Positions 49 through 63,972 of a stretch of 64,000 nucleotides of DNA are shown here, in pieces. The stretch lies in NCBI GenBank assembly GCA_023623175.1, contig JAMNXU010000021.1:6912-70911 (forward strand). Direction: 5' to 3'. The position numbers and the translations under genes are program-made. The DNA comes from Bacillota bacterium (lineage in GTDB: Bacteria > Bacillota > Clostridia > Acetivibrionales > JAMNXU01). The stretch's first letter is position 1, and the number at the start of each line of letters is the position of its first letter. The notes under the pieces were generated by a model. That model was not told where the DNA came from. It did no database searches and was given only the letters and a program-made list of their open reading frames with translations.

Positions 49-768
49 TCAGCGGAAAGCAGTGAAAAAATACTGTCTACCCTGTTTTTGTAATCCGCCT
101 TTTCTCTGCCATACTAACAAGTATCTCCAAAATAGCTTGCGCTTTATTTTTGCCGTCGGTATATGCTTGTCAGCCAACACCCTGATCTCTTTCATGGTCA
201 TATATGTATCATGCTTGCCGTGCCTTTCCCAGACTTCCCTTGAATAATCGTCATCTTTTCGCAGCCTGCCGTTTTTTATCAGGTTCATTATAATATCCGG
301 GAAAAATGCACTGCCCCATATAATGTAATCCCACAATGTTTCCGCCTGTACAAGATCTAATATGATAAGTTTGCCGCCTTTTTTGAGTTTTGCCTTGGCA
401 AAATCCAAAAGCCACTTGTATGGCAGGTGATGCGCCGTAGCCGTTGTTATGATGACATCGAGACTGTTGTCTTCAAACTCCATATCGAGGATATTTGCAT
501 AAACATACTCGATGTTGTCAGCCGGATACAGCTCTTTCGCCTTTTCAATCATCCTGTCCGCAAGGTCAACGGCTATCACTCTGTTTGCTTTTTGGGACAG
601 CATGTATGAGAGCTCGCCTTTGCCGCAACCGATATCAAGACAGGTTTCCGCTTTGTCCGGGACAAGTTTCAGGAGTTGCTTAAAATAACAGTTGTTATGA
701 TTCCACTTCAGCTCGTCAAGTTCCGATATTTCGTTGAAATCGGATTTTATGAGGTTGTAGTTTTCCAT
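49..768 (-). CDS. class I SAM-dependent methyltransferase
   Basis: 239-aa ORF. SAM-binding motif I is LDIGCGKGELS, followed by VIAVDLADRM and DVIITTATAHHL, which is typical of small-molecule Methyltransf_11/25 enzymes. Confidence 0.8.
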   Translation of the reverse strand: MENYNLIKSDFNEISELDELKWNHNNCYFKQLLKLVPDKAETCLDIGCGKGELSYMLSQKANRVIAVDLADRMIEKAKELYPADNIEYVYANILDMEFEDNSLDVIITTATAHHLPYKWLLDFAKAKLKKGGKLIILDLVQAETLWDYIIWGSAFFPDIIMNLIKNGRLRKDDDYSREVWERHGKHDTYMTMKEIRVLADKHIPTAKIKRKLFWRYLLVWQRKGGLQKQGRQYFFTAFR

Positions 769-830: not shown

Positions 831-2618
831 TTATTCATGATTTTCTGCTTCTAAAGCGCAAACAAACTCCGCTACTACTCTAAATGCTCCTTCGGGTACA
901 TTTTCTAATACAATATCATCAAAATCCAAATTATCAGGAGACAATATTATTTTTTTATGATACCATGTGCCGGTTGCGTCGTATTCTTTTTTACTCCTGT
1001 ATCTCTTTATAGTATAGCTTTGCATGGTTTCAGGATCACTGACAAGATGCGATTCAACCAATACTATCTTGCCGTTGCGTGAACCGTCTCGTTCAAACCT
1101 GAAGATACAGTAACTGCCGTCCTTTATTGTTGGTTCCATTGATTTTCCCACAACCTGGGCAATAAACATATCGCGGTTAAGCTTTACTGGAGCATCGACT
1201 TTAATCCACCCACTAAGCTCTACATGCTCTTCATTCCCAAACGATGTTGCAACCGCCTTAAGGGAATATACCGGCAAATATTCTTTGAATTTTTTACTAT
1301 CTTCAACATTATCAAGAATTATAACATTATTTTGACCTGTAACTGTTTTTGCTGCAGTCGTCTTCTGCGGCAGCATTCTGGACTTGAAAAATTTCTCTGT
1401 AACCTTGTTTATAAAATATACATAACAGCCTTTCATTCCGCGGGTAAAAAGAACTCTGTATATGTTCTTAATCAGGTCAACAAAATTATTGCCTGACCTT
1501 TTTACCACACTGTCAAAAGATTTACTTTTGTCCCCGATCCAAGTCTGAGCATCAAAATCATATACTAAATCTTCACCCATTATTACTCCTACATAATCAA
1601 ATTCAAATCCTTGCGCCGTATAAACACAACCAATCTGATTAATACCGTTTGGATCATGCGCCCACAAAGAGGCTTCCGGAATGCCTTTTGCAAGTCTGCC
1701 TGCGTCAGGTTTTGCATTCCACGGTCTACGATAATTCCCAATTACAACATCTTCTACAAGAGTCCCATCATTTCTTGGGTCCGACCATTCCCAGCAGTAA
1801 CCCGCAGTCATTCTTGCACTGTATCCTTCCTTAGCTTTTTCACGAATAGCCTTTTCAAGGGCTTCAGGAGTATCAAATATTCTGAAATCGAAAGATTCAT
1901 TATCAGGATCCCAAAGAACATTAGCAGTTCTTTTTATACCAAGAGTGTTATTTATCCAATTAACGAAAGCATCGGAGCCATTACACCTGAATTGAATATC
2001 CAGTTCTTCGAATTTCACCACACGACAATTATTTCGTAAGGCGCTTTCATATATGTAGTCCACTGAACCTATTTCATCCGGTCTCACGACCTGTTTATCA
2101 TCCAAAAGAAATACGCTTACTTTCGCCGCTCTGATTATTTCATCAATTTGAGCTAGATTAGAACGGCGAGATGCAGGCGTAAACCTGTTATTGCTTGTTT
2201 TTCTTAACCTGTGGGCTTCATCGCAAATAATGACATCAATTTCATTGAGTCCCACGTTCATATAGCTATTGAAATATTTAAACTGACATGCTCCCCTCGT
2301 ACCTATTATGTTTCTCAGCGTAGTGGTAAAAGCCTTTGAACCTGTCGCATAATGGGCATTGTAACCGGCCAGCAGCAGGTCGGCCATTAAATTTATTGCA
2401 ATTACTGATTTACCGGTACCCGGCCCACCTTCAATAATCATAACCGTTTTTTGCGATGTATCCTGGCTTCTTTTTGCTTCGGCAAAAACCATGTCATAAA
2501 CTACTTTTTGATTATCCAGCAAAATGAATTCGGGTTTTCCCTTTATAACATTGGCAACATGGTTCATAAGCTTTTTGCTGGGTCTATAGCTACCCTTTTC
2601 AATTTTTCTAAAATACAT
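831..2618 (-). CDS. DUF2075-type P-loop NTPase (helicase-like) with C-terminal LexA/UmuD-like S24 peptidase domain
   Basis: 595-aa ORF. Walker A GGPGTGKS, Walker B VIICDEAHRL, and DUF2075-like blocks CVYTAQGFEFDYVGV and RVLFTRGMKG. The last ~150 aa carry GKSMEPTI (Ser nucleophile) and IKRY (Lys), as in S24 autoproteases. Confidence 0.75.
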   Translation of the reverse strand: MYFRKIEKGSYRPSKKLMNHVANVIKGKPEFILLDNQKVVYDMVFAEAKRSQDTSQKTVMIIEGGPGTGKSVIAINLMADLLLAGYNAHYATGSKAFTTTLRNIIGTRGACQFKYFNSYMNVGLNEIDVIICDEAHRLRKTSNNRFTPASRRSNLAQIDEIIRAAKVSVFLLDDKQVVRPDEIGSVDYIYESALRNNCRVVKFEELDIQFRCNGSDAFVNWINNTLGIKRTANVLWDPDNESFDFRIFDTPEALEKAIREKAKEGYSARMTAGYCWEWSDPRNDGTLVEDVVIGNYRRPWNAKPDAGRLAKGIPEASLWAHDPNGINQIGCVYTAQGFEFDYVGVIMGEDLVYDFDAQTWIGDKSKSFDSVVKRSGNNFVDLIKNIYRVLFTRGMKGCYVYFINKVTEKFFKSRMLPQKTTAAKTVTGQNNVIILDNVEDSKKFKEYLPVYSLKAVATSFGNEEHVELSGWIKVDAPVKLNRDMFIAQVVGKSMEPTIKDGSYCIFRFERDGSRNGKIVLVESHLVSDPETMQSYTIKRYRSKKEYDATGTWYHKKIILSPDNLDFDDIVLENVPEGAFRVVAEFVCALEAENHE

Positions 2619-3217
2619 GCTCCTTTGCCTTTTTCCAGCTTACTCACCAAAAAGCCGCTCAACTTATCTACATCCTCGGCAGTAAATACAGGATCAGTCT
2701 CAAGCATCCTGGTAAACTTATCAGAAAATATTACATCGCCAGGATACGGATGATAATTGTGCAAATAAGCGCAGGAATTGAGCTTAATCGGATCAGGTTC
2801 TTCATAAAATGCCGTATGGGTATCCTCCAGATACATTCTATATAGCCCGACCTGAACCGATGGATGGAGAATATCCCTGAGAGTTTTATCACCTATTGAT
2901 TCTTCGCATTTATCCCATTGCTTAAGTTCTACAATAACAGCATTATCCTTATTAAAGGCATCTTTGCCTGTTATCAGGCAATCCAGTCTTCTTGATGTCA
3001 ACGGGAGTTGATATTCCAGGATTATGCCGTGATCATCCAAACCGGTATAACTTATGACCTGCTGCAAAGCCCTTAGAGAATTTTGCCAGGAGTGAACTTC
3101 TCCATCGCTCGGATTATATCCATAGTAATTGTAAAAACTAATACGCAGTTTTTCTGCAATCTGATTCCGGACTGTGTCCATGACAAACTGTTCGGAGGTT
3201 CCTGAATACAGTCTCAT
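2564..3217 (-). CDS. PD-(D/E)xK nuclease-like N-terminal module of the DUF2075 protein, a separate ORF because of a frame change
   Basis: ATG at 3217 is preceded by GGGAGGA. The D...ExK-like signature is RLDCLITG ... AVIVELKQW. The 3' end overlaps the next ORF by 55 nt in another frame, and both frames encode parts of one conserved junction. Confidence 0.55.
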   Translation of the reverse strand: MRLYSGTSEQFVMDTVRNQIAEKLRISFYNYYGYNPSDGEVHSWQNSLRALQQVISYTGLDDHGIILEYQLPLTSRRLDCLITGKDAFNKDNAVIVELKQWDKCEESIGDKTLRDILHPSVQVGLYRMYLEDTHTAFYEEPDPIKLNSCAYLHNYHPYPGDVIFSDKFTRMLETDPVFTAEDVDKLSGFLVSKLEKGKGACILEKLKRVAIDPAKSL

Positions 3218-3531
3218 GAGAAATCCTCCCATGCCAGTTATATTTATCCTCACATGAGATTAGCTTTTGTAAAATAGGTTAACGTACATAAGCGTCTTTA
3301 TAAAATCATATTCTTCTAATACAAGTTATGTCAAGGTTAACAAAAAGAGAAAAATGTATACAAATGATAAGAGCAATTAACTCAATCCTGCAGTTTCTCC
3401 TGAACCATCGCCAACTCAATAAAAAAAGCACCTGGAGAAAAACCCCAAGCGCTTTTCACAGACTCGCGTTTATTGCAGAACCTTATTATTCATGCAAATA
3501 CTAGCTGGATCACCTGAAAACATCCTGTCCG

Positions 3532-15407: not shown

Positions 15408-16294
15408 GTCAGGTTACTGGGAATTCCCACGGTAGTCGACAGGATGATTCAGCAGGCCATTGCCCAGGTTCTAACACCCATATTTGACCCTGAATTCTCG
15501 GAGAACAGCTAGCCGTCCGGTTTCGGTATCTCCACTCTCCGTACGGGCTTGGGACGATATGTCCCTGCCTTCAATTCCTCGATTAGATTATTGCCATTTT
15601 CTTTCAGGTATGGCAGAAGTTCATCCACCTTTATACCGTCAATTCCATGGGAGCCCTTGTTCCTGACTACCTGTTTGTAGGCAGCGTTCATGTTGTCGCT
15701 ACTCAATATCTTCTCGAGCAAATTAAAGGTACTTGCTTCTCCATTGTCCTGTCCGTTTGTTTCCGCCGGAAGTATTCTCCGCACTCCTGCCATACCTCGG
15801 GGTTCCACCCCTGCCTCTGGCAGGTAGCCTTCATATGAAGTTGTCTGCTCTCTACGAATCCTTCTCGAGTCCTTCAAGCTTTCAGAACCTCCTGTTGTTC
15901 AGCCCTTCCGCGCCGTTCATGACCGTCGCGTACTATGGCCTCTGCTGACTTCTGACCGTTCAGCCGTACATTACTGCACGGATTGCCTTGTGGAAATTCA
16001 TCCAATTCAGAGTACCGGTCAGACCTCCGCGGGTAAGCGCGCGCCCCTTCATCCCATATACCTGCTTCATTTACATCGCAAGCCTCGGATAGCATTGGAC
16101 TTCGTTTTGTTTAGCAAACTCGTCCGACTTGCATATGCCTCATATGAAGTTCCTGTTCGTCAGGCCGGGACTTTGCCTCCTACTTCCTTCAGATTCCACC
16201 TCGCGATGGACACCCTTGTCTTTGGCTAACGGTTGGTGCTATCAACCCCCGTAACGGACTTTCACCGTCAAGGTCGCGCGCATGCCGCGCGCAC
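15408..16294 (-). mobile_element. 3'-truncated group II intron remnant (5' ribozyme domains plus the first ~155 codons of the RT/maturase)
   Basis: On the minus strand it starts GTGCGCGCGG at 16294 and contains GACGGTGAAAGTCCG-type domain I sequence. ORF 15509-15877 encodes the RT N-terminus (LLEKILSSDNMNAAYKQVVRNKGSHGIDG...RRVEIPKPDG). The next RT block VRLLGIPTVVDRMIQQAIAQVLTPIFDPEFSENS is present but on the opposite strand (15408-15509). No domain V/VI or RT palm/X domains follow. Confidence 0.85.
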
Positions 16295-56585: not shown

Positions 56586-56604
56586 ATGTCGAGTCGAAAA
56601 CAAA

Positions 56605-56745
56605 CTATTATTGCCGAATCCTGCCGCAGGCAGGAGCGGGGGACATTAAACTTTGGGGTTAATCCGTCCGGCTTGCGATGCCGGATGGTAGGGGAACCGC
56701 TCTCTCCGCACCCGTCAACTAACCTCGCAGGCATTAGAGAGGAGT
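56605..56745 (+). ncRNA. ydaO/yuaA-class c-di-AMP riboswitch
   Basis: Conserved blocks GCCGAATCC, GAGCGGGGGAC, GGGGTTAATCC, GGTAGGGGAACC and ACCCGTCAACTAACCTCGCAGGC match the B. subtilis ydaO leader almost block for block. It lies upstream of a cell-wall hydrolase, the classic context. Confidence 0.9.
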
Positions 56746-56752
56746 AATAGTT

Positions 56753-57433
56753 ATGTTCAAAAGTAAAAGTTTGTCTAATGGAATGTTCAAAAAAACAGTA
56801 TCGCTTGTAGTTGCCCTTGCATGCGCAACTATTTTCTGGGCAAGCACTGCCCACGCCGACTATTATTCATCAAGGATACTTTTAAAGGAAGGCATGCGCC
56901 ACAGTGAAGTAGTAAGGTTGCAAAATGATCTGAAGAGTCTTGGCTACTTTTATGCAAATTCAACAGGCTATTTCGGCCCTATAACAAAACAGGCCGTAAT
57001 CAACTACCAGAGGGACCGCAAGCTGCTCGTGGACGGTATAGTAGGCCCGCAGACAGCAAGGCAGATTAAGGTTGACAGGATACTGGCGACTGCCATGAAG
57101 TACATCGGAGTGCCTTACCAGTGGGGAGGTACATCGCCAAAGGGCTTTGACTGTTCAGGTTTCACCCACTATGTAATGCTTCAGCATAACGTGATAATAC
57201 CGAGAGTTGCAAGGAATCAATACTATGACGCAGGAACCTGGGTTGCGTGGAACTCTCTTAAACCGGGAGACCTGGTCTTCTTCACGACATATGCGCCGGG
57301 TCCGTCCCACGTTGGAATTTATATAGGCAACAACCAGTTTATTCACTCAAGTTCCTCAAAGGGAGTTGTAATTTCCAGCCTGACAAATACCTATTACGCG
57401 ACCCGCTATATCGGGGCAAAAAGAGTGATATAG
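56753..57433 (+). CDS. secreted peptidoglycan-binding NlpC/P60 family endopeptidase
   Basis: 226 aa. Signal peptide, PG_binding_1 repeat (VVRLQNDLKSLGYF...GPIT) and the NlpC/P60 catalytic block YQWGGTSPKGFDCSGF ... HVGIY. Confidence 0.9.
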   Translation: MFKSKSLSNGMFKKTVSLVVALACATIFWASTAHADYYSSRILLKEGMRHSEVVRLQNDLKSLGYFYANSTGYFGPITKQAVINYQRDRKLLVDGIVGPQTARQIKVDRILATAMKYIGVPYQWGGTSPKGFDCSGFTHYVMLQHNVIIPRVARNQYYDAGTWVAWNSLKPGDLVFFTTYAPGPSHVGIYIGNNQFIHSSSSKGVVISSLTNTYYATRYIGAKRVI

Positions 57434-63897: not shown

Positions 63898-63972
63898 TGG
63901 CGTCCCGACCAGGAATCGAACCCGGATCAGTGGAACCGGAATCCACCGTCTTATCCGTTAGACTATCGGGAC
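63898..63972 (-). tRNA. tRNA-Arg (anticodon CCG), CCA encoded
   Basis: Hand-folded cloverleaf: acceptor GTCCCGA/TCGGGAC, D arm GTCT-AACGGATA-AGAC, anticodon stem GTGGA/TCCAC with loop TTCCGGT, T arm CCGGG-TTCGATT-CCTGG, discriminator G, then CCA. Confidence 0.85.

Follow-up and report, generated by a model that had tools for sequence, protein, structure and literature searches.

Two overlapping open reading frames (ORFs) lie on the minus strand of a 64,000-nucleotide stretch of DNA from a Bacillota bacterium (contig JAMNXU010000021.1 of assembly GCA_023623175.1; the whole stretch is called the window here). Between positions 831 and 3217 they appear to encode, in two pieces, a protein with a nuclease-like domain, a DUF2075-type helicase and a LexA-type S24 autoprotease domain. 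Are these two genes or one broken gene, to what kind of system would such a gene belong, and is this copy alive? Comparison with relatives indicates that the two ORFs are halves of one gene, and that the locus is probably a copy, acquired horizontally and now decaying, of a gene that is widespread in defence islands, likely a pseudogene or dead relic. An initial sequence-only reading of the window had described the two ORFs, their overlap and a set of motifs, and all of these are present.

The elements from which the gene is assembled are as follows.

2564..3217, minus strand: ORF A, the N-terminal nuclease-like domain and a helical linker, with an out-of-frame tail past the frameshift
831..2618, minus strand: ORF B, the remaining linker, a DUF2075/Schlafen-group-3 superfamily 1 (SF1) helicase, a second linker and the S24 domain
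2602..2607, minus strand: frameshift site, placed by DNA alignment to the nearest relative

ORF A runs over 2564..3253(-) from a GTG start, and homologues support an ATG start at 3217. ORF B has 595 amino acids (aa) and is identical to database protein P0002. The two overlap by 55 nucleotides (nt) in different frames, and no further stop codons occur inside either half. The frames were joined in silico at the A-run, and the resulting 795-aa repaired protein was used as a query, which recovered more than 7,900 relatives. Because more than 110 of the 120 top relatives consist of one ORF, about 790-810 aa long, with both PF09848 and PF00717, ORFs 2564-3217 and 831-2618 are, on comparative grounds, halves of one protein of about 800 aa, and the three-module fusion that had been proposed is real. 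These top relatives are 57-69% identical to the query across 99% of its length and come from Bacillota, Omnitrophota, Elusimicrobia, Nitrospirae, Betaproteobacteria and other sources, and an alignment of 24 of these long forms has a mean column identity of 72%. The nearest relative, L004, is a Logan contig with 77% nucleotide and 81% protein identity. Its DNA alignment to the window places the expected single-base indel exactly: one base was lost between 2603 and 2602, the first of an (A/G)TT codon, immediately 3' of an A5 run at 2603-2607 (coding strand). Where intact members have an uninterrupted ORF of about 790-810 aa, the window thus has a 1-nt deletion at 2602/2603, and the repaired junction, ...ACILEK/IEKGSYRPSKKL, agrees with the family consensus. 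Programmed frameshifting was considered as an explanation and rejected, since no relative has a frameshift at the junction.

The central module is the most readily classified of the three.

1413..2450, minus strand: SLFN-g3/DUF2075 helicase core, ORF B residues 57-402 (Pfam PF09848)
2406-2429, minus strand: Walker A motif GGPGTGKS, invariant in the family
2208-2228, minus strand: ICDEAHR (DEAH, Walker B), invariant in the family
1593-1622, minus strand: YTAQGFEFDY, a motif quoted in the sequence-only reading

PF09848 matches this region over model positions 1-352 of 354 (E 2.2e-88; 297 bits against a gathering cut-off of 24), and the Walker A and DExH motifs are intact, as the proposal of a DUF2075-type P-loop core had implied. 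The fold is Schlafen-like: the top Foldseek matches of the central domain in the PDB are human SLFN11 (7zel, E 2.8e-7) and SLFN14 (E about 3e-7), although the second RecA-like lobe was modelled poorly, with a predicted local distance difference test (pLDDT) score below 50. A search of the whole-protein profile against PDB sequences returned nothing. The likeness to human Schlafens 11 and 14 is that of the central domain and of PF09848; the human proteins differ in having an N-terminal tRNA/rRNA endoribonuclease domain in place of D/ExK and QxxxY motifs, and in lacking both an S24 domain and a MazG partner.

The N-terminal module is harder to place, and three conserved motifs carry most of what can be said of it.

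2972..2989, minus strand: RLDCLI, with Asp79 as the putative PD-(D/E)xK motif II residue, invariant in alignments of 24 and of 20 diverse sequences
2915..2932, minus strand: VELKQW, with Glu97-x-Lys99 as the putative (D/E)xK motif, invariant in the same alignments
2840..2854, minus strand: QVGLY, a QxxxY-type motif opening the helix that follows a hairpin, its Gln and Tyr invariant in bacteria and archaea

Neither Pfam nor NCBIfam has a match to ORF A. NCBIfam gave generic P-loop matches only, and the N-terminal domains of intact homologues matched nothing in Pfam at E <= 5. A weak match to ORF A came from the N-terminal part of the PADLOC PDC-S41 model (E 3.6e-5). All 20 members of a diverse bacterial and archaeal set have Asp79, Glu97-x-Lys99 and Gln130-xxx-Tyr134. 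In a model of an intact N-terminal domain (pLDDT 87) the acidic motifs fall on two consecutive strands (77-85 and 91-99) and the QxxxY motif on a helix (127-145), the strand-strand-helix order expected for a PD-(D/E)xK core. The domain is therefore described here as nuclease-like, a putative PD-(D/E)xK domain with QxxxY, reminiscent of RecB and Cas4 in its motifs, and not as a proven nuclease, because no fold or sequence match reaches significance. The restriction-endonuclease-like character first ascribed to it thus stands as far as the invariant D/ExK motifs go, while the fold search did not confirm the fold.

The C-terminal module had been read as a LexA/UmuD/CI autoprotease domain with a Ser/Lys dyad and a cleavable linker, and the first part of that claim is well borne out.

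849..1235, minus strand: S24 (LexA-type) catalytic domain (PF00717, Foldseek and hhalign)
1131-1148, minus strand: GKSMEP, containing the nucleophile Ser
999-1016, minus strand: YTIKRY, containing the general-base Lys
1236..1277, minus strand: LPVYSLKAVATSFG, the equivalent of the LexA/UmuD cleavage-site strand

The window copy scores 30.4 bits against PF00717 (Peptidase_S24; gathering cut-off 23.3), and the homologue P0042 scores 40.1 bits. A model of the domain (pLDDT about 80-87) matches the C-terminal domain of E. coli LexA, 7b5g, in Foldseek with E 2.3e-6, a template modelling (TM) score of 0.74 on the target and 23% identity. Profile-profile alignment to E. coli LexA by hhalign gave a probability of 89.6% and E 1.9e-6, pairing GKSM with GMSM (Ser119) and TIKR with TVKR (Lys156). 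Searched against PDB sequences, the S24 sub-profile found weak matches only (E 0.09-0.85), all of them LexA or UmuD. The family therefore shares with LexA, UmuD and lambda CI (MEROPS S24) the fold, the GxSM nucleophile and the TxK general base. Most members also have a strand of the form (V/A)A(A/C)-G, within LPxYSLxAAAGxFG, some 35 residues ahead of the Ser; the corresponding spacing in LexA is 34. The family differs in that the S24 domain follows a 640-aa enzyme where LexA-type proteins have a helix-turn-helix (HTH) domain or a short peptide, and the DNA-binding repressor function of LexA is not expected in it.

The cleavage site is where the window copy departs from the pattern. Of some 126 long forms, 92 have Ala-Gly or Cys-Gly at P1-P1'. 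In the window it is Ala-Thr (AVAT, 1245-1256), so that P1' is Thr and not the Gly of LexA, and the same AVAT site marks the window's Bacillota subclade (22 of the roughly 126 long forms), in which the Ser and Lys are retained. Since the site is Ala-Thr, the canonical scissile bond that had been assumed is absent from the window copy, as judged from the alignment, while the predicted dyad is present, and cleavage in the AVAT clade may be altered or lost.

The genes around intact relatives change the picture of the system in one respect. It had been taken for a single-gene system; intact relatives are instead usually coupled with a small adjoining gene of the MazG type, which makes the family, as predicted from gene order, a two-gene module. 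Wherever the context of an intact long form was annotated (eight loci, L001-L003, L005, L007 and L088-L090; for example L003:9657-10004), a MazG-like gene (PF12643) of 115-132 aa lies directly upstream, ending 2-5 nt before the helicase gene or overlapping its start by 4 nt. At 80 further loci from GTDB representative genomes (L008-L087), where MazG was detected with a home-made hidden Markov model, the gene is upstream-adjacent at 44 and just downstream at 6 more. The partner matches the DCTPP1/RS21-C6 structures 6sqw and 2a3q (E 3.5e-17) and an archaeal pyrophosphatase (E 1.9e-20), and it retains the acidic metal-binding motifs ExxE...ExxD. It shares these matches and motifs with DCTPP1/RS21-C6, the all-alpha MazG-type dCTP pyrophosphatase, and differs in being prokaryotic, about 115-130 aa long and encoded by a gene that adjoins or overlaps that of a helicase-nuclease. 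The helicase-nuclease itself occurs in two forms, one of about 800 aa with the S24 domain and one of about 620 aa without it; the latter is very widespread and includes members from Thaumarchaeota, Paraburkholderia and Akkermansia.

Seen beside these relatives, the window copy bears several marks of decay. The clearest is a second lesion in the nuclease-like domain.

2873..2890, minus strand: site of a 24-nt deletion, DKTLRD, placed by DNA alignment to L004

This unique in-frame deletion shortens DNEVxTWxNGxLRD to DKTLRD, and the resulting 8-aa gap, in a segment that is otherwise nearly invariant, is peculiar to the window in both alignments, the one of 24 long forms and the one of 20 diverse members of either length, archaeal short forms included. 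In the intact model the deleted residues make up strand 112-117 (pLDDT about 90), the first of a beta-hairpin that follows the ExK strand and precedes the QxxxY helix. At columns invariant in every other sequence, the window protein has six changes of its own; its clade mates have 0-2. The adjacent MazG-like (PF12643) gene of intact members is missing, and searching the window by tblastn with three MazG partners revealed no remnant near the locus. L004 has no MazG gene either, and at L004:3264-3398 its conserved S24 C-terminus (KKIILSPDN...VAEFVCSL) lies out of frame with the remainder of the gene, the mark of an independent frameshift at another A-run.

The locus has a GC content of 39.5%, whereas the window averages 46.9%; no more than 1.3% of windows of equal size are so poor in GC, which agrees with the AT-rich islet described earlier. 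Homology between the window and L004 extends over the gene only (3260..849). Low GC and homology confined to the gene make the islet compatible with horizontal acquisition, as had been suggested. Given the 24-nt deletion, the missing MazG gene and the decayed nearest relative, the locus is better read as decay than as a lone sequencing error, and the most economical reading is that a MazG-less copy was transferred into the lineage and has been eroding independently in each host. The sequence-only reading had conceded that a frame change shared with relatives and accompanied by further decay would make the gene a dead pseudogene. The further decay is there, in the 24-nt deletion and the loss of the partner gene; the frame change is not found in relatives.

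A number of observations weigh against decay, and several of them are what would be expected if the gene were intact and functional, its frameshift a homopolymer sequencing or assembly error, and a single 795-aa protein made from its own promoter. The lost base adjoins the A5 run, and a single-base lesion of this kind could be an assembly error; both halves are otherwise stop-free and retain 81% protein identity to the nearest relative; and a strong promoter-like site lies upstream of the gene.

3305..3334, minus strand: sigma-70-like promoter TTGACA-18-TATGAT, an 11/12 consensus match about 50-90 nt upstream of the gene

This site falls just beyond the block homologous to L004, and is a consensus match only, in a region with 12 promoter-like sites against 10.0 expected from shuffles. 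The other ORFs of the 64-kb window look long and unbroken, which is uninformative for this one site. In addition, MazG may be dispensable, since it is missing at 19 of the 80 other loci, whose helicase genes look intact, and the 8-aa deletion might be tolerated. Set against an intact gene are the loss of 24 nt of a conserved strand, which is atypical for a sequencing error, the missing MazG partner, the independent frameshift in L004 and the excess of unique substitutions at invariant columns, and we consider it rather unlikely that the gene is whole. Far less likely still is a split system, with separate translation of a nuclease subunit (217 aa) and a helicase-S24 subunit (595 aa) that are coupled by the 55-nt overlap and act as a complex. 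Complete domains are retained in both halves and the ORF B ATG at 2618 is preceded by AAGGAG, but that Shine-Dalgarno-like hexamer stands just 1 nt from the ATG and can be put down to the Gly codons that are conserved in the LxxGxG junction, this junction is spread over two frames, none of the 120 top relatives other than ORF B starts there, and the few shorter relatives look like truncated or contig-end copies.

If the window copy is a relic, as we think probable, it still points to a larger family, and the S24 module proved to be widely used. The S24-bearing architecture is not rare; it is abundant in databases, and the module also occurs on many restriction and defence enzymes. A profile of the module including its linker, searched against 1.84 billion cluster representatives, found 2,310 proteins, 445 of them at E <= 1e-30. 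Among the best 150 matches (P0129-P0278) the module is at or near the C-terminus in nearly all, and 140 are without DUF2075 motifs. The Ser is present in 149 of these 150, the Lys in all 150, and an Ala-Gly or Cys-Gly pair in 129. Pfam scans of 18 of the 150 identified as partners type ISP specificity with Eco57I/N6 methylase domains, MmeI-like methylase with a target recognition domain, a type I HsdS, a ResIII/SNF2 helicase, giant proteins of the form DEAD-Helicase_C-MZB(DUF1998)-REase, and DUF2075 helicases; several module proteins have no recognisable N-terminal domain. Examples that share the linker LPxYSLxAAAG are P0254, P0241, P0175, P0157, P0179, P0253 and P0166. Because Ser, Lys and the Ala/Cys-Gly bond are kept across the 150 representatives, selection seems to act on the predicted self-cleavage chemistry in many defence enzymes that target DNA. 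One member of the set, P0129, has two S24 stretches in tandem.

The closest described system is Nhi, a nuclease joined to a DUF2075 helicase that degrades phage replication intermediates, prevents the accumulation of phage DNA and is countered by a phage single-stranded DNA-binding protein (10.1101/776245). A Nhi-like protein with an N-terminal nuclease and DUF2075 also protects against phage (10.1101/2022.05.11.491447). Nhi (SERP2475) and the Nhi-like protein of Millman et al. 2022 share with the present family an N-terminal nuclease-type domain and a PF09848 helicase in one polypeptide, and both are tied to anti-phage defence (10.1101/776245; 10.1101/2022.05.11.491447). The link to Nhi that had been drawn from the architecture is upheld, as a distant one: the PADLOC Nhi and AbiO models match part of the helicase core at about 45-49 and 46-50 bits, respectively. 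Scores of this order over part of the helicase indicate a different sequence family, and the N-terminal domain is without detectable similarity to that of Nhi; moreover, neither a MazG/DCTPP1-like partner nor a C-terminal S24 domain, both features of the present family (S24 in its long form), has been reported for Nhi. The PADLOC candidate PDC-S41 is likewise a single gene, with 657 model positions, and beyond its N-terminal match it aligns with the C-terminal part of the helicase at E of about 1e-10 to 1e-19; the match is partial (57-69 bits for proteins of 620-810 aa), and the model has no S24 part and no MazG counterpart. Full-length matches were found to none of the PADLOC Nhi, AbiO and PDC-S41 models.

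By analogy, then, the family may be seen as a Nhi-type nuclease-helicase with two undescribed additions, the S24 module and the MazG partner. No S24-bearing version had been known to the sequence-only reading, and none emerged from the literature: in non-subscription full text we found no paper on DUF2075, Schlafen or Nhi helicases with S24, LexA or MazG, and none on S24 domains fused to restriction-modification or defence enzymes. Records from JGI are already annotated 'DUF2075 family protein/phage repressor protein C with HTH and peptidase S24 domain', and because such automatic annotations exist the architecture is visible in databases, yet it appears to be uncharacterised.

How might such a protein work? 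An intact member would be a polypeptide of about 800 aa in which a PD-(D/E)xK-like domain and an SF1 helicase are joined to the S24 domain through the LPxYSLxAAA/G linker. By analogy with Nhi, the helicase-nuclease would unwind and degrade phage DNA or its replication intermediates, and the MazG partner would hydrolyse dCTP-type, possibly modified, deoxynucleoside triphosphates. LexA, UmuD and lambda CI each dock in the groove of the RecA filament (PMC9926225), and the S24 module would most likely cleave itself in the same way at AAA/G in the groove of a filament of RecA on single-stranded DNA (ssDNA). Once cleaved, the enzyme would lose the dimerising S24 domain and end in an Ala-rich C-terminal tail. 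As a tentative proposal, to which we give less than even odds, the module could then be a portable self-cleaving sensor of RecA filaments or DNA damage, added to many DNA-targeting immune enzymes (this nuclease-helicase, restriction-modification proteins of types ISP, IIL and I, and DEAD/DUF1998 helicase-nucleases) and allowing SOS to switch them off or on at the protein level, with the nuclease-helicase working beside a dCTP-pyrophosphatase-like partner.

As to the direction of the switch, we lean, short of real confidence, towards a damage-triggered OFF switch in preference to a phage-triggered ON switch, because the same module sits on constitutively active restriction-modification enzymes. 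An OFF switch would amount to built-in restriction alleviation, sparing the host chromosome when it is damaged; a ClpXP-type degron, like that of cleaved LexA, may be involved. The N-terminal fragment of cleaved LexA, which ends in -VAA, is a ClpXP substrate, and the Ala-rich C-terminus proposed after AAA/G cleavage would resemble it. Type I restriction is alleviated after DNA damage when ClpXP degrades HsdR; the proposed logic is the same, a DNA-cutting enzyme being removed in response to DNA damage, and the difference is that the sensor here would be an S24 domain fused into the enzyme itself.

The alternative, which we regard as doubtful, is that the S24 domain is an ON switch or a targeting device: RecA-ssDNA filaments induced by phage would trigger a cleavage that frees an auto-inhibited nuclease-helicase, in line with the activation that the sequence-only reading had implied, or the domain would tether or dimerise the enzyme without cleaving. 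UmuD is activated by the same chemistry, and the AVAT subclade as a whole (22 of about 126 long forms) keeps Ser and Lys, which hints at a role independent of the canonical bond. Nhi-type enzymes, moreover, target ssDNA-rich phage replication intermediates (10.1101/776245). Against activation stands the presence of the module on restriction-modification enzymes, which require no activation signal, and pure tethering is inadequate because Ser, Lys and the Ala/Cys-Gly bond are conserved in 86-100% of representatives.

Several points tell against the proposed mechanism as a whole. The N-terminal domain had no significant match to a nuclease in Pfam, PDB sequences or Foldseek, its best being Shedu at E 0.11. 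Processing of certain LexA-like proteins does not require RecA (PMC7101444). The direction of the switch is argued from domain partners, the nuclease, helicase, protease and anti-phage activities are all predictions, and the association with defence islands comes from eight contexts and carries no background statistics. Should S24 self-cleavage answer RecA filaments, it would provide a direct post-translational link from the SOS response to phage defence and restriction, and would bear on the old question of how a damaged or recombining chromosome is spared by the cell's own DNA-cutting immune enzymes, or how phage replication is sensed. The conserved DCTPP1-like partner hints at a nucleotide-pool component in Nhi-type defence. 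The use of the window copy is that it draws attention to the family and illustrates decay after a partner gene has been lost.

For six of the eight intact long forms with annotated contexts, the neighbours include defence or mobile genes, a qualitative count without a background control.

L003: RloB with an AAA_15/21 ATPase, and an HNH protein
L005: type I-C CRISPR-Cas
L007: RhuM, Gp49/HTH and ParB
L088: NERD, MNT-HepT, AbiEi, HNH and a transposase
L089: an integrative and conjugative element with AbiEii, HipA and Fic
L090: two MNT-HEPN pairs, a second DUF2075 gene and a Y1 transposase

The second DUF2075 (PF09848) gene in L090, an Omnitrophota contig, encodes 658 aa (L090:12449-14425) and lies immediately downstream of the long form, followed by the Y1 transposase. 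In three Bacillota contexts a DUF6904 gene of 256 aa directly follows the long-form gene (L002:12500-13270, L005:12504-13274 and L007:10112-10882). It has no PADLOC match and is absent from the window, and its product may be a third component in that Bacillota clade.

In the window, the gene is flanked by a putative methyltransferase gene on one side and by a sugar-utilisation and ABC-transporter cluster on the other. The methyltransferase candidate is a 239-aa ORF at 49-768(-), 62 nt downstream of the broken gene, with a GC content of 42.8%, between those of the islet and the window mean; a glycine-rich motif of the class I S-adenosylmethionine methyltransferase type was judged by eye, and the ORF is not common to L004. 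Upstream, 3254-3531 is non-coding (about 280 nt, AT-rich), and beyond it comes a 141-aa ORF of the sugar-utilisation cluster. Some 13 kb away from the locus, domains D1-D4 of a group II intron, a mobile element, were found at 15902-16210(-) (Rfam RF02001, 148 bits; RF01998, 75 bits). The sole tRNA of the window is a tRNA-Arg (CCG) at 63898-63972(-). A c-di-AMP (ydaO/yuaA) riboswitch at 56602-56748(+), scoring 85.8 bits, lies directly 5' of the ORF at 56753..57433 and fits a Bacillota-type host.

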